A DNA stretch of 64,000 bases from Raillietiella orientalis (Eukaryota): NCBI GenBank assembly GCA_036172245.1, contig JAYWIR010000018.1, positions 744,001 through 808,000 on the forward strand. Direction: 5' to 3'. Positions within the stretch are counted from its first letter, which is position 1. Each line of letters starts with the position of its first letter. The notes under the pieces are model-generated. The model made no database searches, was not told the origin of the DNA, and saw nothing but the letters and a program-made list of their open reading frames with translations. Shown piece by piece: positions 3,953 through 63,759 of the stretch. Both the position numbers and the translations under genes were made by a program.

Positions 3953-5828
3953 ATCACCCGGATATGCCGGAGCATTTATTATTAAAGTTTTAATACAAAA
4001 TTTTATAATAAAGACGACAATAATGTTTCTATCGTGATAGAACACTTGGTTCTACCACGCTGGAAGACTTGCCATGAACCGGTACTAAGACCGGTGAGGT
4101 CCTCTCCAGCTGCAAAGGGAAAGGGGAAAGACAAACAAAAAGGAAAACAAAAAGAATGAAAAAAGGAAGGGGAATGTTTTTGGGGAAAGGGAGGGAATGG
4201 ATCACTGCATGCCAGGATTGGTCCTCTGCATACTGCTATGGATGCTGACAAATGCTGCTTTAGTGTTCTTTCGGTGGGGCCACCTTGTTGCGGTCTCCGA
4301 AAAGATCATCGTCCAGTGGATGGCGTCCCTGCCTTTTTGGCCTCTTCTTTTAGCGTTCCACCTTGCCAGGATACCGCGAACACCGCAGAGAACTGCAAGA
4401 GACTCAGCGGGGGGTAGGGCATCACGCATGAAGAGGTGCCTGAAAATGTCTTTCGGGTCGCCTACTGGAATATTGAGGATAGACGAGAGTCAATCCTAAG
4501 GTTCCACGAGGACGACACACTCTATCAGAAGATGCGGGAAGGTTTCCTTTTCGCCACACTCTGTAAAACAGGCATCTACATTCCCTAGTGTCCAGTGAGA
4601 GAGGCGAGATCTGCAGAGGATTCCCCAACGCAGGAATAGCAACGCCGTCTCTTGCCACTTCATCGGAAGGGTGACATTATCCCAACACGCTGGGGGCCAT
4701 TTCACCTCCTCCGGAGGTATTGCGAGCAGCTCGCCTCAGAGCGCAAGTCCTTAAGGCGGGAACTCTCGGGGTCGTAGCGTCCGCCAGCTCCCCAGTTGTC
4801 CACGCCTTTAACGATTTTTTCCTGCCTCCCATGAGTCAGGACACTTCCCACATTGTCTGTTCGTCGCTGTCCCTAACGTGTTTGAGGGGGGGGGGCAGCA
4901 CTGGGGCAAGAGGGGTAAAATAAGCCCACAGCAGCTTACGGTGATTGTTTAAAATCTCCTGCAGGGGCTGACGAGAGTATCTTCCACGTCGGTGGCAGTT
5001 GTAATCCGCCTCGCTCGAGTTGTTGATCTTGGCCCACACGGAAACCGACTCCTGAAGCCAGGCATTGCAGTTCGCGGGCCGGTAGGAGATCCACGTGTTC
5101 TCCCTCAGCAAGGCAACCATCTGTCGCACCTGATGACCACAATGGTTCAGGCGACTTTCGCATGCCACGAGGATCGAAGACAATCCTTCGCAACCGGTCG
5201 CTTCGCTGGCGAGGAGTCGTGCGGGTTCGCACCATGGAGTGATCCACAACTTCGCCGCAAGGGCGAGTCTTTGAAATTCGAGCCGCCGCTCTATGTACTC
5301 CAACGTAAGGAGGCCCAGTCCACCGTCCCTGCGTGGAGCGCACAAGTCTTTCAAGCGGACACGGGACCTCCCTGTGCTCCAAAGGGCATTCCTCAGAAGG
5401 CCCCCGGTCCATCTTTTGATGATGGGCGGGGCGGGGCAAACAAAAAGTAAGGGGCGAAGGAGGGGGGCCACGAACGCGTTCCACATCGCGGCCCGTTCCT
5501 GCAAGTAAAACTTGCCATTCCGGAACGGGCCGATCGCCAACTCCACCTTTTGGAGACGTGGGACCAGGTTTCTGCAAAGCAGAAGTCTCCCAACGAAACG
5601 CCAAGGTACTTGATGTACCTGTCCGTGGGGATCCCCACGCGGATCCAGTCCGGCAGTCCGGCCCACGCAGTATTTACAGGAACTATCGTCGATTTCTCTC
5701 TGTTCACCTCTAGGCCCGTCCCGCGGTGCAGCAGCTCAAAGAAGTCTTCGAGCGCCGACCCTGGGGTGGACCCGGGGAGCAGGAGCAGAAGGTCGTCGGC
5801 ATAGGCCAACGGACAAGCAAGTGAGACG
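3953..5828 (-). mobile_element. 5'-truncated L1/Tx1-like non-LTR retrotransposon (RT YADD to 3' end) with candidate target-site duplication
   Basis: Reads LAYADDLLLL...GTGLEVNREKS...IKYLGV...RRDGGLGL...C..CGEKETFPHLLIEC with frameshifts, followed by a T-rich tract and the structured 3' tail. Flanked on the + strand by taagaaaattc (3942-3952) and taagaaaaattc (5829-5840). Confidence 0.9.
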
Positions 5829-6752: not shown

Positions 6753-7912
6753 AGCTGAGAGCAGTGTGTTCGACACACAAAAGCGTGCAATCCACAGACG
6801 TGAAATCCTGGGTGAAGTTCCACCGTGGAACCACCAGAAATACCGTTAAGGGCCGTTTCAATGCTGGGCAAGGCGGAAACTGAAATACATGAAATCAACC
6901 TCCGCACTGTCTCAATCATGTTTTGGATGCAGATGCATCTTTTGAATGAGTTTACTTGAGCAATGCATCGCAGTAGTCGATCCTTTCAGGCAACAGGAAC
7001 AACAGGTTGAGGTGTTTGCAAATGCTCATGCCACGCTCACAACCTGATTTGAAATGTTTTCAAAACTGCATCACAACACCCTTGATGTGCCCACCACAAC
7101 CACAAGGCTTTTTCAACCCGCAAATCTTGCAGGGCAACCTTCATTGAGAATTTCAAGCCCGTATACGTGTTTCTTTTGACTTTCTGCAAGGAACAAGTAC
7201 TCGGAGGTCGAAAGTGGTTGGTACTCGAGAAACACTCTCCGTTTCTAAATATATACAATACTGAGAAAAGCTTCTCAGGTCAATTTCCGGTATAACCCAA
7301 CTCGGGGTACATTTGCTGAATTAAGCTTCATAAGCATGATTAGCAACACGTATTTGTCATGACCATCAAGACTTGCCTGCCACTAAAAATTTGGAATCTG
7401 ATAATCATGGCAAACGATTTTCGGTAACTCAAATGCTTTAATTATTACCGCAACATTTTACCAAGTAGGCAACGGACATAAATTCTTTGGAGGTGGACAC
7501 AATAATCTGGAGCCATATATACTGTATTCGATATTTAATTTACTTTCACACCTACCATCAATGTGGTTCCTCAGAATCTGTCTTAAGAATGAAAAGCAGA
7601 CAATTTGGTGAAAACATTTCATGACATCTTTCATCATATTGGCCAATATTCGCATTCATACATGAATACAAATAATAATTCCTATATTTACTTTTAAGAA
7701 TCTTAATTTCAATAACATAAAGAACATTCAGTGTACAAGTATCCACTTTAGAAGCTTTAATCCAAATCAATCCAGCTCAAATACAAAAACCCACAATTAA
7801 GGTAACATATCTTTTAAATACAGATTGACAAACTATCTATGGAGAACGTCTTTACTGTAGTTTCCCAAACTCATTTCATGGTTATAAAATGTGAAAAACA
7901 GCACTTGTGCTT

Positions 7913-14443: not shown

Positions 14444-14622
14444 GACCCGAACCACACGGAATTTCCACTGATCGAAAAATTCCCTTATTTCTCGAGCATT
14501 CTTTGCTTGTTAATCGAAACGACCACGACCACAAATCTCATCGACGGTTTGCTCTTGGCGCTGCCAGCTGAGGAATCCTGCAAGACGATCGGTTTCATTT
14601 CGAGAGTTGGACGCAAGAGAGG

Positions 14623-15000
14623 ATGGCAGATTTGGAGGTTTTAAGGAAGATCGAATCCCAAGTAATGATGTTCCCACGAAACAGAACAATAATTTCCTCG
14701 AAAAAGTTAGCGGACTTCCTCGAATACTCTCGTCCGGATGACCCGGTGGGAAAGATTCCAGGAATGAATCGGCAAATGTACTATGCAATGTCGCAAAGGG
14801 GAATCATGAGACTTGAACAAGTGTATGAAATATTTTTGCGATCCAATTACAAGCTGGGAACATTCATCCAGCATCTGGTGGGAAGGATCGGCAGGACGGG
14901 ACCAGATTTCCTCGAAAGAGTCAACATGATTTTTCTGTCTCTGTTCTATTTGCACCTTCGCATGGAATCTCGTCAAAGACGAAGAAGCATACGCTTCTAA
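14623..15000 (+). CDS. Divergent barrier-to-autointegration factor (BAF/BANF)-like protein, 125 aa, intronless
   Basis: SKKLADFLEYSRPDDPVGKIPG...QRGIMRLEQVYEIFL...TFIQHLVGRIG aligns without gaps to remembered human BAF residues 4-68, with 16/65 identities (S4,K6,D9,F10,P19,V20,G21,G25,R37,G38,V45,F49,L50,F59,L63,G68). Good start context (AGGATGG) and AATAAA at 15005-15010. Confidence 0.75.
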   Translation: MADLEVLRKIESQVMMFPRNRTIISSKKLADFLEYSRPDDPVGKIPGMNRQMYYAMSQRGIMRLEQVYEIFLRSNYKLGTFIQHLVGRIGRTGPDFLERVNMIFLSLFYLHLRMESRQRRRSIRF

Positions 15001-15039: not shown

Positions 15040-16250
15040 TTGTGCGCGAAGGGAGACACCAGTGGGTGTTTCACACCCTCGCCACGAGTGCCGACCGCCT
15101 GAATAATGTCTGCATCTACACTCGACGAAGAAGTACTGGCATCTAGATTCTCCATGTCAGTTTAGAGAATTCCAGGACCCCAATCATTGCCCTACTGCAG
15201 GACCGCCCTTTGAGTAAAAAGTAGAACGCACGAAATCTGGACTCCATGTGTATCATACATGTAGCCGGAAGCAACAAGAGATTCAGGTGGTAGAGGGTCC
15301 TTTCGACGAAGGACCCTCTACCACCTTCCTGTCCTTTCTTAGAATTTCCTGACCTCGCCCTGCCAGTGTCCACTCAATCTCCGATCAAGCAGCAGGAAAA
15401 TCCCTCCGCAAAATGCAAAGTCGGTGCAAGGGTTCTGTTGCTCGCCGATGGGAGCGGTCGAGCAGCATGGACCCACTGTCGAGTCCCGCTGCTGACTCTG
15501 TATCGTGTCTTCATGAGCGCACTGTTTCTGTAATGGACTGAGAAACGTGGGAGGATGTCGGGAGCGAGCCCAACTCTAGAAGCTGTCCAAGAATCTCGGC
15601 CGAGACTGCGACGCGCCTTCCAAAGTCGCAGTTGCCTCGCTTCCATCCTGTCCATGAAGGATGAAAGTGAGGAAACTGCGGGTCCTCCCAACTGTCTTCT
15701 CACCTTCGGAGTCTCGAGCGCGTCACTCTGAAGCAGCTGCTCACATCCGGAGAGCGTGCAGATCGGGATCTCGATCTCGCGATTTGTACTCAGTCATTGA
15801 GCAGTTCCTCCTGAACTCTGCTTCGATGTCTCCACGATGAAAGGAATCTGCCTTGCCAAGCACCGACAGCAGTTTCGACGGGAAAGACACGGCTTTTCTA
15901 GGGTAGCGAAAGTGTCGGATCCAAGTCCTGAGCACGTGGAAAACCCACGCGTAGGGAGGCAGCTCGTTGCCTGTTGAAAAGATTCCGCAGAGAGTTGTTA
16001 CTCCTTGTGTGCTATCCTCGCAGACGCAAGCATCCAGCCTGCTTGCTGGATGAAGAATCTGCCGCTGGCGACGCGATCATCTATGGCAGGTCGGGACACT
16101 CAGCGTTCGAAACTGGGGGGCAAACGTAGAGAGGGGATGACCCCTGATTCCTCCGGAATTCGATCCCGATCTGCTACTCTTTCCGCCTGAGAAGACACAA
16201 GGACTCGAGCACCCGGAAGCAGAGAAGCAAGTTTGCAAGCGTTCTCCCGA
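15040..16250 (-). mobile_element. Decayed non-LTR ORF2 fragment (RT C-terminal half onward)
   Basis: GGIRGHPLS (like GIRQGCPLS) at ~16130-16160, LLSVLGKAD, and LGGPAVSSLSSFMDRMEARQL (like GGLGL); multiple stops and frameshifts. Confidence 0.6.
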
Positions 16251-16279
16251 AGAGTTCCACCTCGGCTTGCCGTCCGGGA

Positions 16280-16920
16280 CTGTGGGACTGGGATCGGCTC
16301 GATTCTCCAACCATGCACAATTTAATGAAGGCCTGCCAGGTCACCGGTTTGCAGACCGGCGCGCGGTCCACCACAGCAGCACACGGGAGAAGGTAAACAC
16401 AGAAAAAAAAACTTTGGGGTGTGTGGAAGGGATCACGTCCTGCTGGTGGCAGTCCTGTCCATCCTCTGTGGGATGCCGACAAGGTCTTGCTGGATATTTC
16501 TGTTCAGGTGGGTCTATCGCATCGCCATCCAGGATGAATTGGACGGTGAAGTGGATGGCATCCCTATTGCTATCATCCTATCGCATCGTCCTCCTGTTGC
16601 ATCGCTCCATGCAGAGACGATCCCACGTTGACAGCACAGGGCTGCCAAGGAGGCCGCTGGCCTAAGGGCGTCGCGAACGAAGAGTTGTTTTATAGCGTCC
16701 CTGTGGTTGCCTCCGGGGGTTCCCCGGGCAGTAGTAAACAGTTCCTGAGGGTCCGGAAGGCAACACAGTCCACCAGCAGGTGGAGGAGGGATCCGTGTCC
16801 CCGCAGCTGATACAATTCGGGTCTACACACACCCGCATCCAGTGATGCTATTGCCGCCGCACGAGTGACCCTAGTGCAGCAGGAATAGAACCAACTCCTA
16901 TCAATTCAAGTGAAGGGTGT
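16280..16920 (-). mobile_element. 3' end of the main L1/Tx1-like family (zinc finger, ORF2 end, structured tail)
   Basis: Colinear similarity with 4040-4700, 40060-40700 and 54680-55150; tail motif ctgctg-tggt-ggacc...ccggt-ctgcaa-accgg...tggcag on the - strand. Confidence 0.8.
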
Positions 16921-19930: not shown

Positions 19931-20128
19931 CCTCACTCCTTGTGGGACTTGGGGAAAATAGAAGCTGGTCTTAAAGGAAGTTATCGTTCAGGAAATCTTT
20001 TTGCAAAATTGTAGCGAAAATGTTCTTTGGTTCTTTTCACCAAAAATGTTCTTTGGTTTCTTGTTACACATTTTACTATGCTTCAAGGCTGCCCATTCGT
20101 TGCACACCCGCTGAAAGCAGTCTGCTGC

Positions 20129-20802
20129 ATGAGAGGACGGAGGTGCGAGCGGCGAGTGAGGCTTCAGAGGTGTCGACCGGCGCCAGTCAGCTGGAGGGGG
20201 AACGAGAGCCACTGGCGTCGGAGGGAAACGGGCAAGAAGAGGAGGACGACCTGGAGAGCGAGGACGAGGACGACGACGACTTGGAGGATGAGAAGGCGGT
20301 TCTGGTGCTCGTCCCTGATCGTACCACCGTTGCCTCGCGCCTGCGTCCCCAAGGACGAAGAGGCGCGGGAGTGGGAGCAGTACCTGGCCACGTCCGCCTT
20401 CCAGGACGCGTACTATGCGCGCTTTTCGAGGTCCTGAGGACCGGCCCAAACTTGTCACGGGGTACCCGTACGTCTTCTGCGGCGTCCAGGCCAAGGCGAA
20501 GCTGTGCATCGACTGTTCGGAAGAGATCATGGACCCCATGAAGACGGACATGTTCCAACCGGAAGAAGATGCTGCTCGCGCGACATCTCCTGGAGGACGA
20601 GGTGGCCAATGTGCTCGAGCTCGTCATCACCCAGAGGACCAGGGTGAAGCTGGGCAACAAGATAAGGACGTCCGACCCCAGCATGGTGTATCTGCCCGGC
20701 ACATGGTTCGGGAACCTGGACCAGGTGCGCTACCTCAGGGGCACCATCCGATCCTACAAGAGGAGGCTGAGGGTCCTGCAGAAGACGCGGAAAAAGCATT
20801 GA
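20129..20802 (+). pseudogene. Frameshifted GC3-rich orphan coding sequence (acidic N-terminus, CxxC, basic C-terminus)
   Basis: Coding-like codon usage passes through ORFs 20020, 20027, 20415 and 20569 in successive +1 frames; no family recognised. Confidence 0.55.
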
Positions 20803-21174
20803 GCGGCGCGCGCTGGGATGCCGGGACCACCCGCTCCTGAACCGACCAAGGGAGTCGATCCTCAGCAATGCACCTAAGATAGGGAGTAGCACCTCCCACG
20901 ACGCCATCACGCGACGGGCTGCGAACCCGGCGATATATATATACATGTATAAATCGCTAAAAGTTTTTTTTTGTTTGCTGTTTGCCTCGACAATCAAAAG
21001 GATCGCCTGCTACTTAATTTAAAATGAGGGAATACCGAAAAAGAAAAAACAGATATGAAGTCCCATATACAAGGGACTGCTTACACATCATGAAATGACG
21101 GGATCTATGTATTTACCAAAACAATAGAAATTTAGGCGTTTTCACGTAAATGTTTCAAAAAGATGTATGTCCAT

Positions 21175-32948: not shown

Positions 32949-35165
32949 ATGTTTGAGAAGTGTTTGCTACATGCACAGGGTAGGCATAAATTTGATTTTT
33001 GTTTTGGTTCTTTTGGGGATAGAAGGTATTTTAGGAAATGTCATTAAACTTGATTGTCCAGTGTTTCATGAATGTCCTTATATCTGTGTCCATATGTAGG
33101 TGTGAAGTCGATCACATTTGCCAAACTTTTGTATTGCACAAGAAGCAATATCTCAAAACCTCAGATTACTACCCATTATACTATCCATCCAAGAGAAAAT
33201 GATCCTCGATGGAAAGGTCAGAGTTTTGATTGTTGTATATGGCTTCAAAGAGTGTGAACAATTTTGCTCCTTAATAGATGTGTGTATGGAGCGTCAAGTT
33301 GATCATGCAGATGTAGTTATTGTTGGAGGTGGCCCTGCTGGTCTTGCAGCTGCCATTAGATTACGTCAATTATGCAAGGAAAAAAACCATGATCTGCGTG
33401 TTTGTGTGTTGGAAAAGGCTGGTGAAATTGGTGGACACATCTTGTCTGGAGCCTGTATTGAGCCAAGAGCTCTAGATGAGTTGCTGCCTCAATGGAAGAA
33501 TGAAGGTTTTCCATCACATTCTCCAGTCACAAAGGATAGCTTTGCATTTCTGACGCAAAAGAAAAGGATCCCTATACCTATTTTTCCAGGTAAGTTGTTA
33601 TTCTGGATTGCAAGCTTATGAAATTTATAGAAATTATTGAGTAGGAATGCCAATGCGCAATCATGGGAATTATATTGTACGGTTAGGTCAAGTAGTACAT
33701 TGGCTTGGAGTACAAGCAGAAGAAATGGGTGTAGAATTGTATCCAGGCTATGCAGCTGCTGAGATTTTATTTGATTCAGAGGGCCATGTCCAGGGTGTAG
33801 CCACAAATGATGTGGGTATATCCAAAGATGGCTCACCTAAGTCAAACTTTGAGAGAGGCATGGAACTGCATGCACGCTGCACAATCTTTGCTGAGGGCAC
33901 ACATGGCCACTTGGCTAAACAACTGATAAAGCATTTCAATTTAAGGAAAGATCAACAACCACAAACCTATGCTATTGGATTGAAAGAGTTGTGGGAAGTG
34001 TCACCAGAGCAGCATCATGCTGGCTGCGTGGAACATACTGTAGGCTGGCCTTTGGTTAGGTTCTGAATTTTTCTGTTCTGTTATTAAAGTCTGTTTTCAG
34101 AATCGACATACATATGGAGGGTCATTCATTTATCATTTACAAGATGGTGATCAAAAGTTGGTGGCATTAGGATTGGTCATTGGACTTGATTATGCTAATC
34201 CTTATCTGAGCCCTTATGAAGAGTTTCAGCGTTTCAAACATCATCCTTACATTTCTCAGATTCTGAATGGAGGACGTAGGTAATCTTTTCTGTTCCGTTT
34301 GCCTAATCTTTTCCTTTCATAGGATAGGATATGGTGCTCGTGCTTTGAATGAAGGAGGAGTACAGTCTTTGCCACAATTAGTCTTTCCTGGAGGATGCAT
34401 TATTGGTTGCAGTGCAGGGCTTATTAATGTTCCCAAAGTCAAAGGTTCTCACAATGCCATGAAAAGTGGCATGCTGGCTGCAGAAAGTGTATTCGATACC
34501 TTATTGAAAGTGAGACAATTCTCTCATATGGGCAACATTCCTTTTCCAGGATTCTCAAAAGTCCATCTTTCCTGTTTCTTATGAATCCCGACTACATTCT
34601 AGCTGGGTATGGAAAGAATTATGGAAAGTGCGTAATGTTAGACCATCTTTTGGCTCGTATCTGGGTTTATATGGAGGTTTATTGTATACTGGTGTCGTTT
34701 ATTCATTATTAAGGGGTCGAGAACCATGGACCTTTAAGCATAAAGGTAAGGAGGAGCATGTTGGTTTTTTTCTAGTGTTGCGAAGGTGCGGACCATGAGC
34801 AACTGCAGTCCAAAGATGTGCACAAGCCTATTGAGTATCCCAAACCTGATGGCAAGATCAGTTTTGATTTAATGACTTCTGTGGCACTTACTGGAACTAA
34901 TCATGAGCATGATCAACCACCACATCTAACGCTTAAAAGTGATGATATTCCTGCTTGCCAAAATTATCCAAGATATGAGGGTCCAGAACAGCGATTCTGT
35001 CCTGCTGGCGTCTATGAATACATTCCAGAACATGGAACTGTGCACTTTACAATCAATGCCCAAAATTGTATACATTGCAAAACTTGTGATATCAAAGATC
35101 CCAGCCAAAACATTAACTGGGTTGTGCCTGAGGGAGGTGGTGGCCCTGCTTACAATGGCATGTAA
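32949..35165 (+). CDS. ETFDH: Electron transfer flavoprotein-ubiquinone oxidoreductase, mitochondrial, 8 coding exons
   Basis: Exons: 32949-32979 (start least certain), 33100-33216 ([17 protein letters not shown]), 33278-33589 ([12 protein letters not shown]), 33645-34054, 34101-34279, 34323-34509 ([11 protein letters not shown]), 34550-34745, 34786-35165 (RFCPAGVYE...[16 protein letters not shown]...GGGPAYNGM). AATAAA at ~35177. Confidence 0.97.
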
Positions 35166-39964: not shown

Positions 39965-41330
39965 TTCTCAACCGGGTACGTCGGAACGTTTTTTCAATAA
40001 AAAAATAAACATTTACGATTTTACGATTATTTTTTCATTATATAAATAAACATTTACGACTTTCGTGGTGGGACCAGTGATCCAGCCACGCCCATCTCGA
40101 AGACAACCTTCCGGGTAACCGGTACGCAGACCGGCGAGGTTCGCCTCGGCAATAGGGAGGAGGGAACAAACGAAAAAAAAAGAAACAAAAATAAATAAAT
40201 AAAAAAAAAATCTGGGAGGGTGCAGGAAGGGATCACGTCCTGATGGGAGCGGTCCTCTGCATCCTTTGGAGGATGCTGGTAGCTTCTGATGCATGCTGTC
40301 TTTCAGGTGGGACCATCTTGTTGCCATCCTCGTGAAGCGGACGGCAAAGCGGATGTGGCACCCCTGTTGCTCCTTTCTCTTGAGCCACTCCAGGCCTCTG
40401 CAATCCCGCATGGGAAGCACAGAGCTGCTAGCAAGGCTGCCGGCCGTCGCGTACTAGGAGGGGTCTCCATGTGTCCCTGGAGTTGCCGCGGGGAGTTTCT
40501 AAGGGAGCGGCGAAGCATTTCCAGAGGGTCCGGAGGACAACACAATCCACAAGCAGGTGGGGGAGGGATTCGCGTTTCCCTCACCTAGCGCAGTTCGGGT
40601 CCACCCTTCTTCCCTCGTGTTCACTGATGCCTGCGGGAGTCGCACGGGAGACCTCAGTTCAGCAGCATCAATGCCGACTCCTGTCACTTTAATGGGAGGG
40701 TACGAGTGTTCATGAGCACCGGGAGCCACTGCAGGTCTTGCTCCGCAATTACCAGCAATAGCTCCTCCCAGTGCAAAACTCCTCGAGGTGGAGCACTCGG
40801 AGTCGCAGCACCTGTAAACTGACCCCTCGTCCACTCACGTAGCCCTCTTCTCCTTCCGGAGGTTTCCATGGATACATCCCACGTAGCCGAAAGGCTGCTG
40901 CCCATGTTCTCCCTCAGGGAAGGCAGTTCTGCGGCGAGGGAGGTTCTTCCTCCCCACGCACGATTTCTTGGATCTTAAATGATCTCCCGGACCGAGCAGC
41001 TTCTGTAATGCCCGTACAGAAATCGTTGCGTCCGTTCGGCGCTTGGCTCCTGGATTCTCGCCCACGTGCGAACGGTTTTCTGTAACCAGGCAGTACCGTT
41101 CTCAGGGCGGCAGGAGATCCATCCCGTGTTTTTCCTCGCCAGCATGGCCACCCACCGAAGCTGCCAGCTGCAGTGGCAGATGTGGCGGCGACGGAGTGCA
41201 AGGAAAGACGCGAGTCCCACGCTGCCGGTGGCTTCCTGGACGAGGAGACGTGCAGGGTCGCACCAGGTGGTGCTCCACAACTTCGCCACGAAATAGCAGC
41301 AGACGGCGCGCGTGAGAGGGCAGGAGGATT
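39965..41330 (-). mobile_element. L1/Tx1-like ORF2 C-terminal half plus structured 3' end
   Basis: AKLWSTTWCDPARLLVQEATGSVGLASFL...WISCRP, closely similar to 62220-63300; tail at 39965-40160. Confidence 0.88.
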
Positions 41331-42468
41331 TCACGCTTCCGCTGACTTCCCCCTAGAGGCGACACGAGCGGAGGTGGAAAGAACCTGGGTAGAATGCGGG
41401 AGCTCTGCTTTCAGATTTTCATCTCGTTTAGAGGACGCTTCCAATCTCATGTCTTCCAAGAAGAAAATGCAAACGTGGGGAACCATGGATACTGCGGCAT
41501 TGGGGACCACCCCATGCACTGTAGGTCGGAATCCATCAGGATGGGCACGACTGTCACTTTGCCTGGGTCATCCAAATCTCCGGCACAAAATTCCCTTGTC
41601 GATTGGATGCGCCGGGAGTTTGCTGGACTCAATAAACTCGCAAAGAAAAGCAGCGGACAGGACTTCAGGTCCTATCACGTTTCGGGTTCCCTCGGGAACA
41701 CGACGAGGTGCCGATACGCAGACCAGCGAGGTCCTCCTCGGCCACAGAGAGGGAGGGGAAGGGGATGTGTATACAAAGAAAAAGGAGTAAACATAAAAAG
41801 CTTTGGGAAGCGATCAATGTTTTTTTTTTTTTCAAAAAAAAGTCCAGTGGCGACATCATGGGGAAAACGTTATTACTGAAATAGGATGAGTATCTCCTGG
41901 TTATGCCGGGGCACTCTTCCCGGGATGTTCGAGGATCGGCCGGAGAGAGAAGCTCCTATAAGACCCGTACAAGAATCGTTGCGTCTGTTCCCGGGCATCG
42001 CTCCTGGTTTCTCTCCCACGTGCGAACGGTTTCCTGCAGCAAGGCACTACCGTTCGCCGGGTAGCAGGAGATCCAGGTGTCGTTCAGCGTGGCCGTCCGC
42101 CCATGAGATCGGCTGGAGGGTCGTCGCTGTCCGTCGTAGGCCATCCGGATTCCTCTGCGGGTCGCCGCAGCTGCTGCGTCAGATTCCGCGTCGGAAGGCT
42201 CCCTGGAAGCGGGGAAGTTGTTCCTCTTCCAAGACCCTCGTGTGGCGAACGGGGAAAGTCTGGGCGCTCCAGGTACCGCATCCCAAAAACCTCCCTTTCA
42301 TCTCTGTGGAGTCCGCGTTGCCGGGATCTCTTCTCGCTTGCAGCCGTGCGAGGGAACACGACCTTAAACCCAACCCCCCGCTCCCTGGGTGAGAAAAAGG
42401 GGACCACCTCTGCACCCGAATTCCATGAAGCTCAAGAAAAAAAGAAAACTTTTTGAGGTCTGCAGGTT

Positions 42469-42999: not shown

Positions 43000-43778
43000 T
43001 GGGAATCTGCTCTCGCCAGCATCACGTGACCGAGCGGATCGTTTTTCTAGCCAAGACCTGGTGTACTGTCGAGGCCAAAAGATGCTGCACTCTAGAAGGG
43101 GATCCGAGAGGATCCACCATGAAAAATGGGCGGGACTTTTGTCGAGCTTTCGGGGAGTTTCCAGCTAGGCCTCCCACACCGTCCTCTGGCTTCGGATACT
43201 CTCTGCTCCGAACTGTAAAAGGTGCGGAGAAGTGGAAACGCTCCCGCACCTGCTTTGGACTGCGATGTCCCCCAAGGACTGTGGCAGAGGCTGGCTTCAG
43301 CTCTCCTGAACCAGGGGGACACCGCAAGAATTTTGATGCGCCGCTTCTTCACGCCAGGCGGCTTGTCGTTAGGTGCGGTTGTCGCAACGATCTGTTGCAT
43401 CCGCGCCATCGACAAGACTCACCGACATATGGAGTCGCAGGCGATTCGAAGACAGGCCACCGGAATAGCCCACAAGAACATGACGTCGGCTGCCAGATGG
43501 CCTCACCTTCCAGAAGACGTCAGGAAGGGGATCTCCGGCATCCAACGCCGGTTCTGAAAGGATGGAATGACCGATACCAAAGACCCCTGTCCCCCCCCCC
43601 CCTCATATATTTTTTTATATTTTAATATATTCATTCATGGTCCCCTCCCTTCCATTCCGGACTTTCGGTTTTACCGACCTGCGTGTCGGGGAGCCTTCCC
43701 TTCGTTATTCTGTACCCTTTGTCCGGGAACGAGGTTCCCGGATAGTTTAGTAATAAACGCCCCAGCGCACCCGGGTGA
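43000..43778 (+). mobile_element. L1/Tx1-like ORF2 C-terminal remnant plus structured 3' end
   Basis: ORF2-end similarity to 40230-40600; tail CCGAC-CTGCGT-GTCGG, TCCGGGAAC-GAG-GTTCCCGGA and AATAAACGCCCCAG...CCGGGTG. Confidence 0.75.
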
Positions 43779-46700
43779 GAAGCAGCGAAGCTGCTGTCTT
43801 TCCAGCATGCCTTTCGGGCGAAGGATGTCTTCCAGCCTCTGGAAATCTTCACCACGCCTTTCGCTTTCGGATGCGGCCACGTCCGGTCCTGCTTGCTTGC
43901 ACTTGGTGCGAGCAGGGAAGAGTGGCATGAACGCTGAATGCGAATTGTCTGGAGACGATAAGTAAATTCTGCCAAAAATAATTCGGGAATCCGTTAATGA
44001 CAGCTCGAAGTCAAAAAGTTTTGCCTCCAGTCCTCCATTAGTCTCAACATATTCCCAAGCGTCTATCAAACCGAGAGAGTATGACTGCGCTGACATAGAA
44101 GATTTGGCTGGTGAAGAACTAGCTGAACGAACAACTGCTCTGAAACCCACGTGCGTTTCTTACAAACAGAAACCACTGTGCTCATGAACCACAAAGAAGG
44201 GAAAAAAGCTAGAGAGCACGATAATGAGTTGTTTGCAATCTGCAAGAAGCAAATCTACAGAAGAACCCGAGAGGTCCGGAACGCACTGCGAAAATATCTT
44301 CGCACCCTAGCTGCGTGCGTCATGGCAGCCCTGCAGGAAACGAACTCCCTTTGTAATTATCGGATGAATCTGATACTAAAGGAGGAATAAAGCTGATAAA
44401 TCTAATACACGAGGAGGAAAAGCTGAAAACCTACAGAATTAGATCTCCAGAGGCTGGTGAAAATCGAAAAACAGCCGTCCGAGAATGCCTAACGGGGCAG
44501 GAAGAGTTGCAACAACAACAACAAAAAAAATGGTCGGCAGGGTTCCAAAATGAAATGCCAAGAGATGGTGTTCCGATAAAGCACTTGCCGGCTGAGATAA
44601 CGCTGGGATTTCTGGACCCAGCTTTGCGCGGCGTTAACTCCCGAGTCGAAAAAACTAAGGATAAAAAGTGGTGGTCACGTCGAATCGGCGAGCGCAAATG
44701 AAAAGGGGAAAGAAAAAAAAATCTCCAAGAAACGGATCACAATCGGCTCCAGATTATAAACCTGCGCTCAATTAGAAGAGAAGCACGAAGGGATACTGCA
44801 AACGGAACACGCACAAAAAAAATAGTATTTGCGTGGAAAATGCGCCGAAGTAGCAAAAAGTCCGAATCAGACGTCATCATCAGATGCGAAGAGGGAGGAG
44901 GCAAGGGGTCTTTGAAAAGGTCAGGCAATACGAGAGGAGCACGAGGACGACGCGATGATACTTTGGTGAGTCTGCGCGCAGTCTGGAGGATCGGGTGAGT
45001 AGTGGTTCCACCCACAAGCATCAGGAGACGTGGTGGAGGATTTTATCATTTTGAGCCGTGGTGGTAGCCCCCCCCCCTCCCTCTTCATCCATCCTGCAGG
45101 GGAAAAAAAAAATACTCACATATAGAAATGCGTCTTGCCGTGTCCTTTGCGCGTGCTTATAGCTAGCCTTCGAGCGGAAGCTGGAGACCTGATTTTTTTA
45201 AATTCCATCGGAGGGAAAAGAAGGGGAAAAAAGGGAGGGGAAGAAAACGCCAAACATCCAGCAGTGAGCGAGACTCACTTCTTTCTCGCTGCTAGTCTGA
45301 AATTAATTTTAGCAAGTCTCGTCGAGAAGATGGATCGCTATTTCTGTCACAGCCTGACAGATTCTCCTTGGAGACGACAACAACGGGAAACTTCGACAAT
45401 GCATTTGTTGCCGTGAGCGAGCGGGAAAAATCGATGACGTCGCATCGTAGTGCCGGGGAGAAGGAGAAGGAAAAAAATGCGCGTCTCACGGACGGCTGTT
45501 CAGCCATCCCGCGTGCCCGACGGGACAGATTGGATTTCTCGGGTGATCCTCAGGGTAACGGCGTGGGCTGCGGGGATCGCTCCTCCTCCTCGCACAGAGG
45601 GGATCAGGGAAGACCAGAGACGAAAGGAGGAAAGATAAAAATGAAAGCAGGAAGCGGCGAAGCATGTCGTGGGAGGAACGTCTCCGCGGATCGAGCCGTG
45701 CCCAAAACGCAACGACAGGTGACGCGTGCGAAGCAGCGCTTCCCCGTTGCCGCCTGGGGACCTGATGGGTTCACACTGCACGCCCCATCCCGCGAAGGCA
45801 GAGTGCCACTGCGGGGGATACGGGAGACCGTTTCCTCTGATGGAGAACCAGAAGGCGTGCGAAGGGTCGCCCTCAGCCGTTAGAGGGAGCACGGCAAGGG
45901 GTGAAAGCCTTTCCGGAAGCGGGAGATGATGTGGATTGGGTCTTCCAGGTGGGACAGAGCGCATCCAGTCCGCAGAGGAGTTCTGGGATTCCTGCTGAGT
46001 CGGGATGATGCCAGGATATCTGCAAGTCAGTTTTTCCGCGATGTCCCGCGGCTGGCGGGCGCTGGTGCGGGATGCCTCCTTCGTTCTGTCCTTCTCCTCC
46101 TGGATGCGCCCTCACCCTCTCTCAGCAGTCGCTGCCAAGTGAAAACCGGTGGGAGAGAGCATATCGCTGCCGTTTGAAATCCCGAAACGCATTCTCTTTC
46201 CGTTGTCCTCCCCCCCTCCTCCTTCCCCTCTTCCCGCCAGGCAGTCGATCTGACCGTGGCGCGCACGAGCATTTTGGGGTCAGGGAAACTCAATCCAATG
46301 CAGAAGCAGGGGCCAGTGTGGGAGGACTCTGGGAAGCTCGATCCGAGGTCTGTTATTCTTTACCTTCTGCTTTCAAGCTATTGAGACCTGGGTGATATCT
46401 CGGGAACCATCCAGACCGCGTTCCTCCCGAGCTGCTGTGAGAATTTTGGGTTCTCCCAGCAGCTCCCCGTCTCCAGGATCTCGAGAAAGAAGGATGCGTC
46501 ACGGGAACTTCACCGGAGACGAACGGGATATCTCCTCTTCCCACTCCGCTCTTCTATCGAGGTTTGCTGAACGCTCACAGGGGTGGTTAAGGTCTGGTAC
46601 GGCCACCTTCCCTTAGCCCCGGAGCACGAGACCGGGACTCTAGCTTCGTATGACCTCTGGGCTTTTGAAGGCCTTCGACACTCAGTGCTCCAAGGTCACC

Positions 46701-51000: not shown

Positions 51001-53377
51001 AAGGACGTGCAGAGACTCCAGTAGGTATCGCGGAATGCTCCAGCTCGGCTCCGCGACCCCGTCCGGTCAAGTGGGTGTTTCCGAAGAGGCGGGAGCTGCT
51101 CAGCATCAGGGTAGCTGTTGCAAGGGTGCTTCCCCCCTGAATTTCCGTTTCCGTAGGTGTACTCATCTCCAGGATCGAGAAGGCAAGCGAGCATCCCGCG
51201 ATGGCGCCTCCTCCTTGGTCCAGCTCGCTCTTCGGAACAGAGAGAGCACCTACGAATGGTGAGGGAGGCGGAGGCGGGTGGAAAGAGCCTCCCGGAGGAA
51301 TCGGCGGATGGGTTTGCGCGGAAGCGACTGACGAGAGGCCTGTTCTTGGGGACAAAACGGTGGCGGAGGACGTAGCAACCGCGATCGCTACAGCTTGCCG
51401 TGACGTCATCGGCAGCCTCTCGGAAGGGAACCCTCAGGACGAAAGCGCGGACGGGCAAATTCGGGGAAAGCGGAGTTCGCTACGATGCACGCACGAGGGG
51501 AGAGCCCACTCTTTGTCCAGCTTACATATTTAATGCGGTGACGTCATGTGGGGAAACGCTCTGCACACCGGCGTGTTGCCAAGCTGCACTGCTGCGGTGG
51601 CTGCATGGCTGCGATCCGCCGGTTGGTTTCCGAGGGTCCCATCTCCAAAGGAAGGGAAGCAGGGAATGACACCGAAGTTCTTCCTCCTCAGCGCCCCCCC
51701 TTCAAGTTTGTGATTTGTTTTGCGGAATAAACGTCCCGGTGTTACCGGGTTCAAACCTCAGCGCCCCAGCTCGTTCAGCGAGCTCCGGGAGGAGGGAAGC
51801 AAAAAATCTTCCCAGAGGCCGCGGTTCGGGATGGCGACGTGCATCCCATCCTTCTGACAGCTCTTTGCCACCTGGAAACAAAGGATCGGGTGACTTTTGT
51901 GCCCTGCCGGAGGTCCTTTTAGGTCCCTGGTCCCCACCTATTCGTGCGCCTCGCCTCTGCCATGCAAAGTTTCACCTATGGCTGGCATTCCTCGCTGGAC
52001 CAAAGGGATGAAAGCCCAACATGGTCGAGTCTGGTCTGACTGTGGGTGGGGGAACGTGGTGATCCAGCGTCCCGACAGAGTAACGGCTTTCTCCGAGAGA
52101 AGAATCAGCGCACCATCTCTCTTATACCTTCCGTTTCGGGTCTCCTCGGATCCTTATGGAGTCGCGGGTGCTGTCCGACGTCTGGGTGAGCACCCCCCCC
52201 TCCTTCTGTGGGAGATTTTCCGAGCGTTCATGATGACCTCAGGGTCAGTTTCCAGAAACTCGGCAGACGTTCTTAGCCACGCGCTTCGCTGCCAGGTGCC
52301 CTGTTGTCCTAAATCAGGGTCGCGCCGGGACCCTGGTTTAGGACAACATTTGTCCAAAGTCAGCTAACACACATCCACGTGCCCTAGGGACATGATTCAG
52401 GGACACCAACTGACCGGTCGGCAACTAAGAGGGCAAAGAGCTCGGAGCAGAAGGGTTGGGGGTGAAAATAAATAAGTGAATGTGCATTTACATGATATGG
52501 GGACACACCGGGAGCAAGTAACGTTGGTCGTCGTCTGAAAACGAGGGGACGGAAGAAGGTCATGCACCTCGCTCGTAACTTTGCCGCGATCCGGGAGGAG
52601 TCCTTTTTGATTTCGGGAGGGAGTCGAGGCCACTTTGCCCCAAACCCTGCATCATGGATGGGATGAAGAGATTGGCTGTCCTTCGGCTCTGTCGCTGCCC
52701 ACCACGTGCAGATTCGCAACTGCTGCGCGGATGATGCAGCACAGCATCCCCAGCGGGAGTCCGTGCAGCGTGAACAACCGTTTCCAGAGCCGCAGAGGAA
52801 AGTCTCCCGGTTGTAGGACTGCTGCCACTCGCTTCCATCATGCATCGCGTTCAGAAGCAGTTGAGGGGGAGACTCGACCCCTCCTCCGCCCACCTGGCAC
52901 GGTTCGTGAACGCGTTTTCTCTCGGCCAGCACTACCTGAGTTGGTTTCGCGCAAAACCCTAGTGCAGGGAGATGTGACGTGGATCTCGGAGGCGGGAGGC
53001 ACATCATGTCGCATCCTGGAGATCCAGGACGGAGAGCAGTGGCGGCGCCGCGCGCTTCTCCATGCTTAGGTTTCACACAGCGCGGCATGGGTTGGAGGGA
53101 TGGGTGGGAGAGGAGACGGGAAAGCGCCACTTTTCTGGGGTAGGGGTGGCGACTAGGAGGAGGTCGCATGGGTGGGTCGTGCCGCTGTGGACGAGAATGC
53201 ACCAGCCGCGCGGTCAGGAGGCAGTGCGGCGCGGGTGAGCCACGACGGGGGCGCCGCTCGCTATGCGGGGGAATGGTGACGGGAAAAGAGGGTCCATGGG
53301 AACCTGGAGCGCGCACCTCTCCCGCTTCAAATACGACGGGAAGTGCCACTGGAGCTAGGAGGGACACAACCAGCACG

Positions 53378-54560: not shown

Positions 54561-54639
54561 CCGTGTCGGCTTATGTCTACGACTTTCTGCTGCTGCTCCC
54601 CATGTCAGCCCCGGTGGTAGCATCCGATTTTCACACATG

Positions 54640-55150
54640 TGCACCGGGGCGTTTCTTTAAGAACAAACATAATTCAAAAATTGTGGTTGGACCAGTGATC
54701 CAACCACGGCCAATTTAAAGGAGACCTGCCGGGTCGCAGACCGGCACGGTCCACCACGGCAGCAGAGAGGGGCAAACACACACAAAAAAAAGGTGACAAA
54801 AAATAAAAATAAATACACTTTTGGGGGCTCGGGAAGGTATCACACTCTGCTGGTGGCAGTCCGGTCCATCCTCTCTAGGATATCGGCAAGGTCTTGCTGT
54901 ATGTTGTTTTCCAGGTAGAACCATCGCGTTTCTATCCTAATGAATAGGACGGCGAATTGGATGACGTCCCTGTCGCGGGATCCTCCCGTTGCTTTATTCC
55001 ATGCAGCGACGATCCCGCGTAGACAGCACAGTGCTGCCAGGGAGGTCACTGGCCGAAGGGAGTCACGGACGAAAAGGGGTTTCAATACGTCCCTGGAGTT
55101 GCCTCTGGGGGTGCGGCAGCGCTCGAAGAATTCTTCGGGTTGATCCATCG
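54640..55150 (-). mobile_element. L1/Tx1-like 3' end
   Basis: ORF2 end (GIVAAWNKA...) plus tail hairpin GTGGTTGGA-N7-TCCAACCAC at 54683-54707. Confidence 0.85.
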
Positions 55151-56521: not shown

Positions 56522-57710
56522 TTGTCACCCGGGGGACTTATTTGGTATATAAAAAAAATAAACATTCTCAATTTTTGGGGTAGGACCAGTGGTCCAACTT
56601 CGCCCATCTCAAAGATAACCTACCGGGTAGCCGGTAAGCCGGTACGCAGACCAGCGAGGTCCTCCTCGGCCAGAGAGAGGGAGGGGAAGGGGAAGTGTAA
56701 AAAAAGACAACAGAATAAAAAATATAAAAAAATATATTAGTAAATAAATATAAAAAAACTTCGGGAAGCGATCATTATTTCTTTTTTAAAAGGCCAGTGG
56801 CGACCTCATGGGGAGATCGTTACTGTTGGCCTATGATCATTAACACGCAGTTACTGATGCATTTATTACATAACGTAATGAGAATACATTTGTGTGGTCG
56901 AACCGTCGGTTCTACCACGCGCAATGAACCTGCCGAAGAGCGGTGCGCAGGCCGGTGAGGTCCGCTTCGGCAGCTCGAAGGAGGGGAAAACAAAGACGAA
57001 AAAAATAAACCAACAAAACAGGGGAGGTTGAATTATACACGGGAAGGAGGGGGGAGGGGAACCGAGGAAGGGAACACGGTACGCTGTCCTGCGTCCTCAG
57101 CATCCTGAACAGGATGCAGGCGCGTTCCGTCCGTACAGCGGCCGGGTGGAGCCATCTCGAGGAGGTCTCCAGGAAGATCCGAGCCCAGTGGATGGCGTTC
57201 CTACCATTTCGGCCTCTTATTCTGGCGTTCCAGGCCGCCGCGATCCCACGAAGGCGGAGGAAAGCTGCGGGGGACGCGGCTGGAAGCGGTGCGGCACCAC
57301 GCGTGAAGAGGCGTTTCAAAAAGTTCCTGGGGTCCCCCACCGGGGTTCCTAGGGTTCGTCGCCAGGCGATTCCAAAGTGATTGGAGGGCAGCACAGTCCA
57401 ACAGCAGGTGTGGGAGGGTCTCCTCTTTCCCGCACCTGTCTCACTGACTGTCTACGCTCCCCCCCGTGTCCAGTGGAGAAGGCGCGCTTTGTACGGGATT
57501 CCTCCATGCAACACCAGCAACGGCGACGCATGCCACTTGAAGGGGAGGGCGCCACTGTTCCAGCGTGCTGAGGACCACTTCACCTCCTCTGGAGGGATGC
57601 CGAGCAGCTCTCTCCAGCGTAGAAGTTTTCGGGGTATTTTGCTCGAGGTCTCAGCGTCCGTGGCCTCCCGAGTTGTCCACGCCCCCAAAAGTTCCGTCTT
57701 TGCTGCCATG
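56522..57710 (-). mobile_element. Two tandem L1/Tx1-like 3' ends (56522-56820 and 56855-57710)
   Basis: Two structured tails; 57050-57710 is colinear with 4200-4810, and 56640-56820 is close to 41715-41870. Confidence 0.85.
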
Positions 57711-57869: not shown

Positions 57870-58487
57870 TTCTGAAGAACCGTTCGCCTTCTTAGAAAGG
57901 CACCTTCAAAGCTCTTTAACGCTGTCTATGTCACCCGAGGGTTCACGTAAATCTTCAGATTAATGTGGTGAACCCTGAAGGAACCGCCCTATGAATCCAG
58001 GAAGGCTCCCGAGGATGGAGTCCGTTCTTCTCACGCCTGGGAGGGAACTCCTAAGGAAACCCTCGCCCTGGCTGTCTCCAGAAGGGAACCACTTCCTTAT
58101 TCACCGGTTTGTGGGGGCTGCTTCTCATTTCTTCTCTGAAGCGAATCCACAAGGAAACCTCTGATGGATTGCTCCCCTGTGCTGCCGAGACGAACCCTAC
58201 TGGCGTGCGTGCCAGTTCCCGGCAGGTTTCTCCTCGTAGTTATAGGTAATTTGGGGCAGGATCAGACGTCCTGCCACAGACATGGATGTTTATTTTATAA
58301 ATAAACGCCCCGGCGTTACCGGGTGTCAACCAGTGCCGCGCCCGAGTAGGCCAACCAGTGTCATCCTGCAAGGGGGACTCGGAACCACACCCCTCCGTTC
58401 TCGGCGTGGATCCTTCCCCGGACGGGATTCGAACCCGCGACGCTCGGGGTCACGCGCGAAGGCCGCAGCCACATGGTCGCCATCGGA
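57870..58487 (-). mobile_element. SINE-like element interrupted by an opposite-strand L1 3' tail (58178-58325, +)
   Basis: tRNA head at 58330-58487 with B box at 58425-58435 on the - strand; body and tail at 57870-58170. Confidence 0.7.
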
Positions 58488-61149: not shown

Positions 61150-63300
61150 CCAGCAATCGGAGAGGAGGAGAGAAGGAACCTCGATGAGCCTTCCACGGCG
61201 GGTAAAATAATCACCGCCTTCGGAAGCCTTAAGAGGCGAAAGGCAGCAGGGGAGGATGGCCTGCCGGTGGAGTTTTATCAGTGCTTCGCGGCAGAGCTGA
61301 CTCCCCTGGTACAGCAACTCACCTTGCTGATACGCGAAACAGGCGACGCTCCGCCTCGTTTTGCTCAGCTAAGGTGCGGCTCCTCCCCAAAGGAGGAGAC
61401 CTAAGGAGCATCAGCAACTGGCGGCCGATTACCGTGCTAAACGCGGACGCCAAGTTGCTTCCGAAATTATGGGCAGAGAGTCTTAGACGGGTGGCGGAAC
61501 GCTTCATCAACCAGGAGCAGTCATATGCTGTTCCCGGGAGGAGCATGGATGCCGACCTGTTCTACGTAAGCACATGGTTCGCGCACCTACAAGAAAGGAA
61601 CAATTTGGGCAGCCGGAATTCCGGAGAGTCCGTCGGTGAAGAACGGGATGGCCGAGCGGGAGAGGGAGCCCTTGTGGTCGCAGTCGATCTGCAGAAGGCA
61701 TTCGACCGAGTCGACCTGCAGCCTCTTCTGGAGCTCCTGGAACGCTTGGGCTTCCCGGCCGCATTACTGCGCTCCAGATGGCGCGATACGCTAATCAACG
61801 TCTCTTCCAGCGGACGCACCGCGTACGGAGTGTCGGTATGGCGCAGGATACGGCAGCCTGAGCCCCTTGCTCTTTAGCACCTATTTCGAATTGGTGCTGA
61901 GAGCGTACAGAGAGACTCTGGCGCACCTGCCGCGTGATTGTCCCCGTACGTCTGCGGTGGCAGCGTAAGCCGACGGCCTTTTGCTGCTGCTCTTCATGTC
62001 CACCCTGGCTTCTACAGTCGAGAATTTCTTCAATGTGCTGAGTCGTGGTACAGGACTCAGGGTGCACAGGGCGAAGTCGTCCGTGATGCCAGTCGGTGCG
62101 GTGGGACAAAGGGAGGTCCCGAGTCCGCTTGAAGGACTTGTGCGCTCCGCATGCGGCCTAGGTCTCCTGACGCTGTAATGGCTGGAGCTGCAGCTCCAGT
62201 TTCGAAAACTTGTTCTCGTGGCAAACTCTGGAGCACCACCTGGTGCCAACCTACACGCCTCCTCGTCCAGCAAACCACCGGCAGCGTGGGGCTCGCGTCT
62301 TTCCTTACACTCCGTCGCCGCCATATCTGCCACTGCAGATAGAAGCTTCGGAGGGTAGCCGCGCTGGCGAGGAAAAACACGGGATGGATCTCCTGCCGCT
62401 TCGCGAACGGTACTGCCTGGTTACAGGAAACTGTTCGCACGTGGGCCAGAATCCAGGAGCCAAGCGCGAAACAGGTGCGACATTTCCTGTATGCGCATAA
62501 CAGCTGCACGCTCCGGGAACTCCTGGAAGATCCTGTGAAGAGTACGTGGCAAACAGAACCTCCCTCGCCGCCGCGCTGCCCTCCCTTGGAGAGCACATGG
62601 GCAACAACCTTGCGGCAAAATGGGAGGTTACTGTGGAAATCTCCGGAAGGAGGAAAGGACTGGGCTATTGGACGACAGGCCAGCTCACCGACGCTGCGAC
62701 TCCGATTGCTCGACCTCGTGGACTTTTGCGTGCTACTGGGTCGCAAGACCTGCATTGGCCCCTGGTGCTCATGAACTCCTGCACCCTCCCATTAAAGTGA
62801 CAGAAGTCGGCATTAATGCTGCTGCACTGGGGGATCCCGTGCAATGCCCATACACATCATTGGACAAGGGGAGGTATGGATCCAAACTGCAAGGTGCGGG
62901 GAGCGGGAATCCTTCCCTCACCTTCTAGTGGACTGTGCTGCCCTCTGACTCCTTTGGGGACGCTTTGCCGCGACTCTTGGAACACCCAGTGGAAACGCCA
63001 GAGGAGACCAGGACGACAGAGACGCCATCAGTTTTGCTGTCCTCTTCATGAGGGCAGCGTCAAGAAGGTCCTATCTGGGAGTCTTGAAACAGGAAGTTGC
63101 CGGTATCCTTACAAGGATGCAGCTGGATAGTGTCCTCTCCAGTACACATTCCAGATTCCCTCCCGGACCCTTCCTTCTTTTTGACTGCATGTTCTTTGTT
63201 TTATGCTTTTTTCTTTTTGTTTGTCACCCCTTCTGTGGTGCCGAGGCGAACGCCGCTGGCCTGCGTGACAGTTCCTGGCAGATTCCTTCTCGTGGTTAGT
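61150..63300 (+). mobile_element. Decayed L1/Tx1-like ORF2 (RT through zinc finger) plus 3' tail
   Basis: LLPKGGDLRSISNWRPITVLNADAKLL...QSYAVPGRS...VAVDLQKAFDRVD...LGFP...RRIRQ. The catalytic YADD is mutated to *ADG at ~61966; tail at 63235-63300. Confidence 0.92.
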
Positions 63301-63759
63301 TCCCCGAAACCGGCAAGCAGTGGGGTAAATTTATTCATGACAAAGTTTTACAGTTTCACCGACATTGGCAACGTAGTTCCCTCAGGTGAACGTATTTCAT
63401 CAATGGATTCCCACAGTTCGCTTCGTAGCGTCTGCAATGCCACCATCAGGGTGGTTTTCTCGGAATGGGTCACTGTGGGATAGAGGGCGGTAGATTCGTG
63501 CTTGTCACTTCCGCGATCTTTTGCAGGATGTAGCGGTAAGTCCAGGCGGGTTTCTTACCTCAATTCCTAATCCCAATTTCCCGCTTGATCAGGCCTTGGA
63601 AGATGTTCACGGCAAGAACCATGTTTCCCGTATTCCTCATTTTCATCCTTCTTATCACGACACTCGTGATGAATAGGGAGATCGGTGCACTGTACCATGG
63701 GATTGTATTGCTGGACATTAATGTTTCCGTCGAACATTCCCGCTAGAATGTTTATTGTG

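Follow-up and report, generated by a model that had tools for sequence, protein, structure and literature searches.

A predicted multi-hairpin recognition module and an exact end without poly(A) in divergent L1/Tx1-type LINEs of Raillietiella orientalis

Stem-loops of human L1 and Alu are reportedly the subject of a published study. Experimental tests of ZfL2-1, ZfL2-2 and UnaL2, stringent LINEs of another clade (L2) with a single stem-loop followed by short tandem repeats, indicate that the ORF2 protein reads the stem as a structure and the loop as a sequence (PMC4176376). In the L1 clade, a monocot lineage is described as carrying a conserved hairpin at its 3' end, with compensatory changes in the stem and fixed bases in the loop (PMC3472496), and families without a 3' repeat account for 9 of 233 L1 families in flowering plants and 5 of 15 in green algae (PMC3472496, PMC3747384). 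The module described below resembles the 3' ends of the monocot lineage 1a (LINE1-1_ZM, with ZmSINE2/3) and of the Chlamydomonas element L1-1_CR (with SINEX-3_CR), which likewise belong to the L1 clade, have a compensated 3' hairpin with a fixed loop and have been read as recognized by the reverse transcriptase (RT) (PMC3472496, PMC3747384). According to the main-text descriptions, however, the plant and algal tails consist of one hairpin of about 45-50 nt that is shared with a SINE, and L1-1_CR ends in poly(A) (PMC3472496, PMC3747384), whereas the module in this animal has four to five helices over 130-170 nt and a tail-less, exact end, and no SINE partner with a common tail was seen among the 16 clusters from 316 of at least 1,727 ends.

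A multi-helix 3' UTR is likewise described for A-clade R2, in which a pseudoknot-hinge-stem-loop positions the template for TPRT, and R2 would be the closest precedent if the crossing helices discussed below are real (PMC11601368). R2 differs in having a single ORF, specificity for rDNA and a different endonuclease, and its pseudoknot has been proven by structure and rescue mutants (PMC11601368), whereas the candidate pseudoknot of the module has no support from covariation. Furthermore, the Tx1 group (Tx1L, Keno, Kibi and others) shares with the elements studied here an ORF2 with APE, RT and zinc finger and a strong, lineage-specific target preference inside other repeats (PMC4494074, PMC3747384). 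The zinc-knuckle signal in the ORF1 region is weak here, and no close protein relative was found, the best being about 30% identical. Tx1 elements with a structured, tail-less end were not found in the literature searched, nor was any description of this tail; Repbase and most subscription papers lay outside that coverage.

The DNA analyzed, hereafter the window, is a 64-kb stretch of a 210-Mb genome and contains AT-rich host DNA as well as GC-rich nests of decayed LINEs. A host gene for ETF-ubiquinone oxidoreductase with several exons lies at 33100-35165 (+); its exon at 33.6-34.1 kb is 69-77% identical to homologs from many animal phyla alike, with no close relative among the matches listed. 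An open frame of 142 amino acids at 14572-15000 (+) has a weak BAF-like Pfam match under the cut-off (E 0.03), and a GC-rich segment at 20000-21000, outside the LINE ORF2 map, has long open frames on both strands and an acidic run, with no Pfam match in the one frame scanned. No tRNA or tmRNA was found.

The repeats belong to two-ORF LINEs of about 5.5 kb with an endonuclease-RT-zinc-finger ORF2. Comparison of an RT fragment from the window with the genome gave 5,370 first-look candidates, of which 150 were scored, and several lie in open frames of more than 1,100 amino acids. Twenty loci fetched by RT similarity alone, which cover lineages A-D only, include intact copies with an ORF2 of about 1,215 amino acids, in which Pfam recognizes RVT_1 (E 7e-22) and zf-RVT (E 4e-4). 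Among public proteins, the nearest are of the L1 type and share about 30% identity (23-33%), many combining Exo_endo_phos, RVT_1 and zf-RVT; most of those with names are RT or LINE-1 ORF2 proteins from plants, algae and amphibians, and none of the matches listed is labeled Tx1. A zinc knuckle in ORF1 is a feature of the Tx1 group, and zf-CCHC was detected in the ORF1 region at a weak E of 0.02-0.03 only, in two of five upstream frames. The length of full copies was taken from duplications that bracket whole copies in lineages C and D. As in other members of the L1 clade, then, ORF2 combines an endonuclease, an L1-type RT and a zinc-binding domain at the C-terminus, and the elements have target-site duplications and are often truncated at the 5' end; upstream of the hexamer AAUAAA, inserts measure between 5 nt and 5.5 kb. 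Their terminal motif (AAUAAA, 3 bases, CCCGG, 4-7 nt, CCGGGU) has at least 1,727 exact matches in the genome and none in a reversed control; a metagenome scan gave 0 matches.

An earlier note on this DNA had listed ten copies of a structured 3' end in the window. A covariance model trained on 19 natural copies, of which 3 lie in the window and none is the focal copy, recovered all ten on the strands given there (E 8e-28 to 4e-7, values that are rough), with the next match at E 0.12, and added an eleventh, a minimal 5'-truncated copy at 51696-51755 (+) that comprises hexamer, hairpin C and end and has a 12-bp target duplication. The nine stems quoted in the note are present letter for letter. 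Complete copies are found at 43651-43781 (+; lineage E, 90% to the lineage consensus) and 58173-58329 (+; lineage H, 91%), and the former, listed earlier from 43645, belongs to a second deep clade and has no CUGCCG/CGGCAG helix. Two copies of the main lineage lie at 56522-56681 (-) and 54628-54771 (-), the latter, listed from 54640, having lost the 3' strand of hairpin A through a partial deletion. The copy at 56840-56982 (-) is decayed, and partial copies are located at 16232-16388 (-; nearest to lineage A), 41596-41753 (-; hairpin A region without the terminal part) and 63229-63343 (+; lineage H). The CUGCGU-type loop that the note described is indeed usual, but the copy at 3951-4121 (-), listed from 3953, carries CUUAGU, which is typical of its lineage F. 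Most window copies have ORF2 remnants directly upstream on the same strand. The scores of distant copies come largely from the terminal motif (31 bits in the minimal copy), and they therefore demonstrate shared ends more than a shared upstream fold.

Read along the minus strand, the focal copy illustrates the parts of the module. The decayed remnant of the ORF2 C-terminus (40387-41292, amino acids 866-1167 of an intact relative; 46% identity to the intact ORF2 of L032 by tblastn, E 3e-69) is followed by a TGA at 40233-40235, in the same context as the ORF2 stop of intact copies, at which a 3' UTR of about 270 nt begins. A pyrimidine-rich tract, first C and then U-rich, at 40161-40232 precedes the folded module and is present in all lineage consensuses shown. 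The enclosing helix P1 has its 5' strand at 40147-40152 (lineage form CUGCCG; 89.8% of cells paired in the sequence-only alignment A1, hardly any double changes) and its 3' strand, decayed in this copy, at 40108-40113. Between them lie the 5' strand of a proposed and unproven crossing helix P2 (GRACC, 40138-40142; 76% paired, no double changes) and hairpin A (40118-40135), with 6 bp and the loop CUGCGU, which tree-corrected double changes make the best supported helix. Hairpin B (40065-40089) has about 11 bp and a short variable loop, with double changes at 9 of 11 pairs. The module continues beyond its earlier description into GUUUAUUU at 40003-40010, which is complementary to the downstream hexamer (stem D, 14 of 24 lineages in a stem test), the poly(A)-signal hexamer itself at 39989-39994 (AAUAAA, here mutated to AAAAAA), the terminal hairpin C at 39971-39985 (CCCGG, a 5-6-nt loop, CCGGG; decayed here) and the last five bases, GNNAA, at 39965-39969. 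The element ends at 39965 without poly(A), as judged from the A counts and target duplication offsets given below; no target duplication was recoverable for this copy. At 39995-40064 (-), the AU-rich stretch containing GUUUAUUU is locally duplicated, and this lengthens the copy by about 45 nt relative to its lineage.

The note had treated the copies as a single L1/Tx1-like family; they are a group of deeply diverged lineages. Our sample of 316 distinct ends, from 307 loci plus the window, is a small part of the genomic total and fell into 16 clusters of at least three ends, with 44 ends in smaller groups. The 24 lineages used are these clusters after splitting together with three added pairs, and in the structure tests a single copy stood for each of J, O and P. 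The ORF2 C-termini are 28-86% identical between lineages and form two deep clades. Every cluster of at least three ends has a same-strand ORF2 upstream; for lineages K and N it was seen in just 2 of 15 and 1 of 11 loci, mostly short ones that were cut off. Independently of the terminal motif, the full motif is found at the end of 19 of the 20 loci selected through RT similarity, and the twentieth, L050, keeps hairpins A, B and C around an AT-rich insert over the hexamer. This insert is a tandem expansion of about 200 nt (roughly 7350-7550, minus strand) and takes the place of the hexamer region between hairpins B and C. In lineage Q (L078, L146, L192) the terminal hexamer and hairpin C are present and hairpin A is not recognizable.

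The comparisons support selection at the level of structure for hairpin A, as the earlier note had proposed for the module as a whole. In A1, five helices are 85.8% paired compared with 78.9% after shuffling (0 of 500, in a control that ignores relatedness) and 27-45% when slid. We corrected for relatedness by mapping changes by parsimony on the ORF2 tree, and the covariation of hairpin A remained strong: paired double changes numbered 8 versus 1.8 expected among consensuses (0 of 4,000 null draws), 7 versus 1.2 among natural copies and 10.4 versus 1.4 across 22 lineages, and 0 of 4000-5000 null draws reached the observed counts. Its loop begins with CUGCG in 20 of the 22 lineages, with B and F differing and the G4 consensus blurred. 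A conserved 3' stem-loop with compensatory changes and a fixed loop is one feature of stringent LINEs, others being a tail that retrotransposition requires and the cognate ORF2 binds, and a SINE partner with the same tail. The combination of variable stem and fixed loop seen here is the pattern reported for stringent tails (PMC3472496), which supports a stringent reading of the module. The stem and loop recognition of the L2 clade is, by analogy, likely to be a suitable working model for hairpin A. Lineage B is among the youngest (mean identity 0.96), and its ORF2 C-terminus is 86% identical to that of lineage A, which has a different loop A; since B and F changed this loop and B is young, CUGCG is not strictly required in that form.

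For hairpin B, the claimed pairing is kept across lineages, but the tree-corrected support is mixed (P 0.02-0.22). The test on consensuses gave P 0.02-0.04 with six G/I/D rows and M partly misaligned, and the test on natural copies gave P 0.13-0.22. One further test yielded a very low P that was set aside, because it located the stem center by pairing and misplaced it in several lineages. In the main clade the sequence of P1 is conserved; F, F2 and M have lost this helix, for which the tree shows no paired double changes. Folding z-scores are -2.8 to -3.8 in four young copies and -1.8 to -3.2 in four window copies.

Short hairpins may also arise as palindromes in DNA that are perfected by template switching during copying, in which case they would not reflect selected RNA. 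We found one such event in L017, where a perfect fold-back duplication of hairpin B at about 1500-1760 of the match region (minus strand) is a sign of template switching; hairpins A and B are short-looped and thus easiest for this type of repair, and the long-range helices have no double changes. However, the loop of hairpin A stays fixed while its stem changes, its consensus stems contain G-U rather than A-C mismatches by 8 to 1 (non-independent counts), hairpin C of lineage B and stem D of lineage C are both capped by GNRA tetraloops, and the architecture persists over very deep splits. Template-switch repair can act on single copies and leaves the fixed loop and conserved architecture unexplained, and as a general account of the hairpins we consider it very improbable.

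The crossing helices around hairpin A, from which the note had derived a pseudoknot or alternative folds, are possible on paper and fared less well: paired double changes, which would help to mark an R2-type pseudoknotted tail, are zero in either helix, although the lack of variation limits this test. Likewise, the suggested pairing of the UGCG loop with a downstream CGUR shows no more compensatory change than chance (P 0.64-0.77). Pairing of loop A with the bases 5' of hairpin B, with P 0.64-0.77 in the tree test, is compensated in lineage B only and does not hold in F, M and two G4 copies. A kiss between loop A and the loop of hairpin C can be drawn in 15 of 22 lineages, with variants that are all transitions; loop A is changed in 2 of the 7 lineages without a loop C match and in 0 of the 15 with one (Fisher about 0.09, lineages not independent). 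One hypothesis is that the whole tail of 130-170 nt forms a single tertiary unit, with a P1/P2 pseudoknot, a kiss between UGCG and CGYR in the terminal hairpin loop, and reverse transcription that starts exactly at the poly(A) junction and skips the tail. We regard this as quite improbable. If true, it would bring an R2-like folded template into the L1 clade, the shared fold could let rival lineages that sit antisense in each other's ORF2 copy one another, and the elements would be a naturally occurring means of inserting DNA at specific sites with an exact end and no tail.

Catalysis had been mentioned as a possible function, and the order of strands (P1, P2, hairpin, P1', P2') is similar to that of HDV. 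Combined with the exact end, this raises the question of whether the module is a ribozyme that cleaves itself to generate the 3' end or release a fragment. HDV has a 3-bp P3, P1' directly after P3', P1.1, P4 and a catalytic J4/2 before P2'. In the module, by comparison, the stem of hairpin A has 6 bp, a linker of 3-4 nt follows, and zero bases separate P1' from P2', which leaves no room for P4 or a catalytic linker. None of the 21 consensuses contains a core motif of hammerhead, twister or pistol on either strand, and 1 of 21 (plus one antisense) has an HDV L3-like word, which lies outside the loop. The Rfam comparison that the note had proposed returned nothing at gathering score over the window and chance-level matches only (E at least 1.5) on three module regions. 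Furthermore, the NN bases beside the end vary freely, and a cut at the 5' edge would part the tail from the ORFs. A ribozyme is therefore unlikely, and we give this explanation almost no weight.

A different role is conceivable for the upstream domain (P1, hairpins A and B, stem D), which could serve RNA processing or stability by tuning the use of AAUAAA or blocking nucleases, with only hairpin C mattering for copying. HIV-1 provides an example of a hairpin that occludes a poly(A) signal. Here, AAUAAA lies at the usual distance from the end and is base-paired by stem D (at least 6 bp) in 14 of 24 lineages compared with 3.5 expected from shuffles, though the lineages are not independent, and the distance of the upstream domain from the end varies. 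However, this same test found no stem D in any of the five G lineages or in E, E2, H, O and Q. A nuclease-resistant fragment would also cause truncations to pile up at the 5' edge of the module, and the absence of a clear pile-up, in a small and partly biased sample with short inserts of 5 to 288 nt, counts against a nuclease block, as does the lack of an Rfam match against the processing role in general. We consider a function restricted to processing or stability improbable.

The terminal part of the module is best characterized by where the element stops. We selected 88 ends without requiring A, from 90 of the first 100 motif matches, and after CCGGGU found A at +4 in 86 of the 88, at +5 in 80 and at +6 in 28; the longest A-run within 20 nt is at most 5 in all 88, so that the poly(A) tail of relaxed, mammalian-type L1 is absent. 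Target duplications of at least 11 bp were identified for 77 of 316 ends, whereas a control position gave 10 of 316. Of the 77, 66 begin at offset 5 (51 cases) or offset 4 (15 cases), and 71 have a length of 11-17 bp; offsets of 3-7 were seeded in the main test, and a separate run with 0-21 gave the same mode. Taken together, the A counts and offsets indicate that the element stops 4-5 nt past the terminal hairpin and is tail-less. The hexamer lies 24-25 nt from the end in 24 of 24 lineages and the distance from hairpin C is constant, whereas that from loop A varies between 97 and 149 nt. The 5-bp stem of hairpin C, a motif that was used to collect the ends, is invariant in 24 of 24 lineage consensuses and shows no covariation; its loop is variable. 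The elements thus stop exactly and without a tail, and the spacing between this stop and the invariant hairpin C is fixed. In L065, L167 and L153, a newer copy has inserted directly where the 3' module of an older one ends, giving two ends in succession.

Like Tx1 elements, the lineages prefer particular target sequences, with flank motifs that are lineage-specific. The 3' flanks of copies from the young lineages A-E2 (e.g., L034, L141, L210, L035, L043) place many insertions in the ORF2 of relatives, mostly antisense: at codon 592 in the RT domain for A (7 of 15) and B (15 of 30), at codons 292-293 for C (9 of 16), at 1072-1073 for D (6 of 7) and at 86 for E2 (6 of 13). The A and B insertions are independent, since their 5' truncation points differ. 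In lineages E and A/B the preference is also seen on the far side of the nick, which fits recognition by the endonuclease, and read-through pairing was dropped as a source of the preference because it is not needed. Lineage C copies in L036, L038 and L042 lie head to tail, the element end being followed by the target duplication and the apparent 5' start of another C copy.

We favor the hypothesis that the module is probably a 3' UTR recognition tail used in the stringent mode by divergent, Tx1-like LINEs of the L1 clade, a prediction made from sequence comparisons. It is supported by the retention of the module over 24 lineages despite the divergence of their ORF2 C-termini. Recognition by the RT, the first of the functions named in the note, is the likely role, and the fixed, tail-less end backs this reading. 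The failure to find a SINE partner among the 16 clusters, the changed loop A of lineages B and F, the invariant stem of hairpin C, the mixed support for hairpin B and a sense strand that folds better than the antisense in just 13 of 24 lineages count against it. Under the stringent reading, the ORF2 protein would bind its own RNA via these hairpins; hairpin A would offer its conserved CUGCG loop as a sequence handle, and hairpin C may act as a ruler that sets the RT active site 5 nt downstream. More tentatively, the RNA could be cut and polyadenylated about 22 nt past AAUAAA, in which case the final AA might represent the first two residues of a tail of which the rest is skipped. The AA may start such a skipped tail because AAUAAA is situated 22 nt before it and the preceding three bases vary. 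The Drosophila I factor is said to prime internally on polyadenylated RNA. Both an encoded and a poly(A)-derived AA are compatible with the DNA.

The tail of this animal L1/Tx1 group is thus real, and it represents a stringent tail of a more elaborate kind. The novelty of a structured 3' module is lower than the note implied, as stringent tails have already been reported in the L1 clade (PMC3472496), but no description of this more elaborate form was found in the literature searched. The natural loop variants of lineages A and B would be useful for mapping specificity, and LINEs with exact ends and site-specific insertion could become useful as tools for gene insertion. It has been proposed, from very few examples, that the L1 clade was ancestrally stringent and that RNA specificity was lost in mammals and plants (PMC3472496). 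An animal L1/Tx1 group with a deeply conserved multi-hairpin tail, an exact end that lacks poly(A) and near-intact young copies provides a testable case for ancestral stringency.
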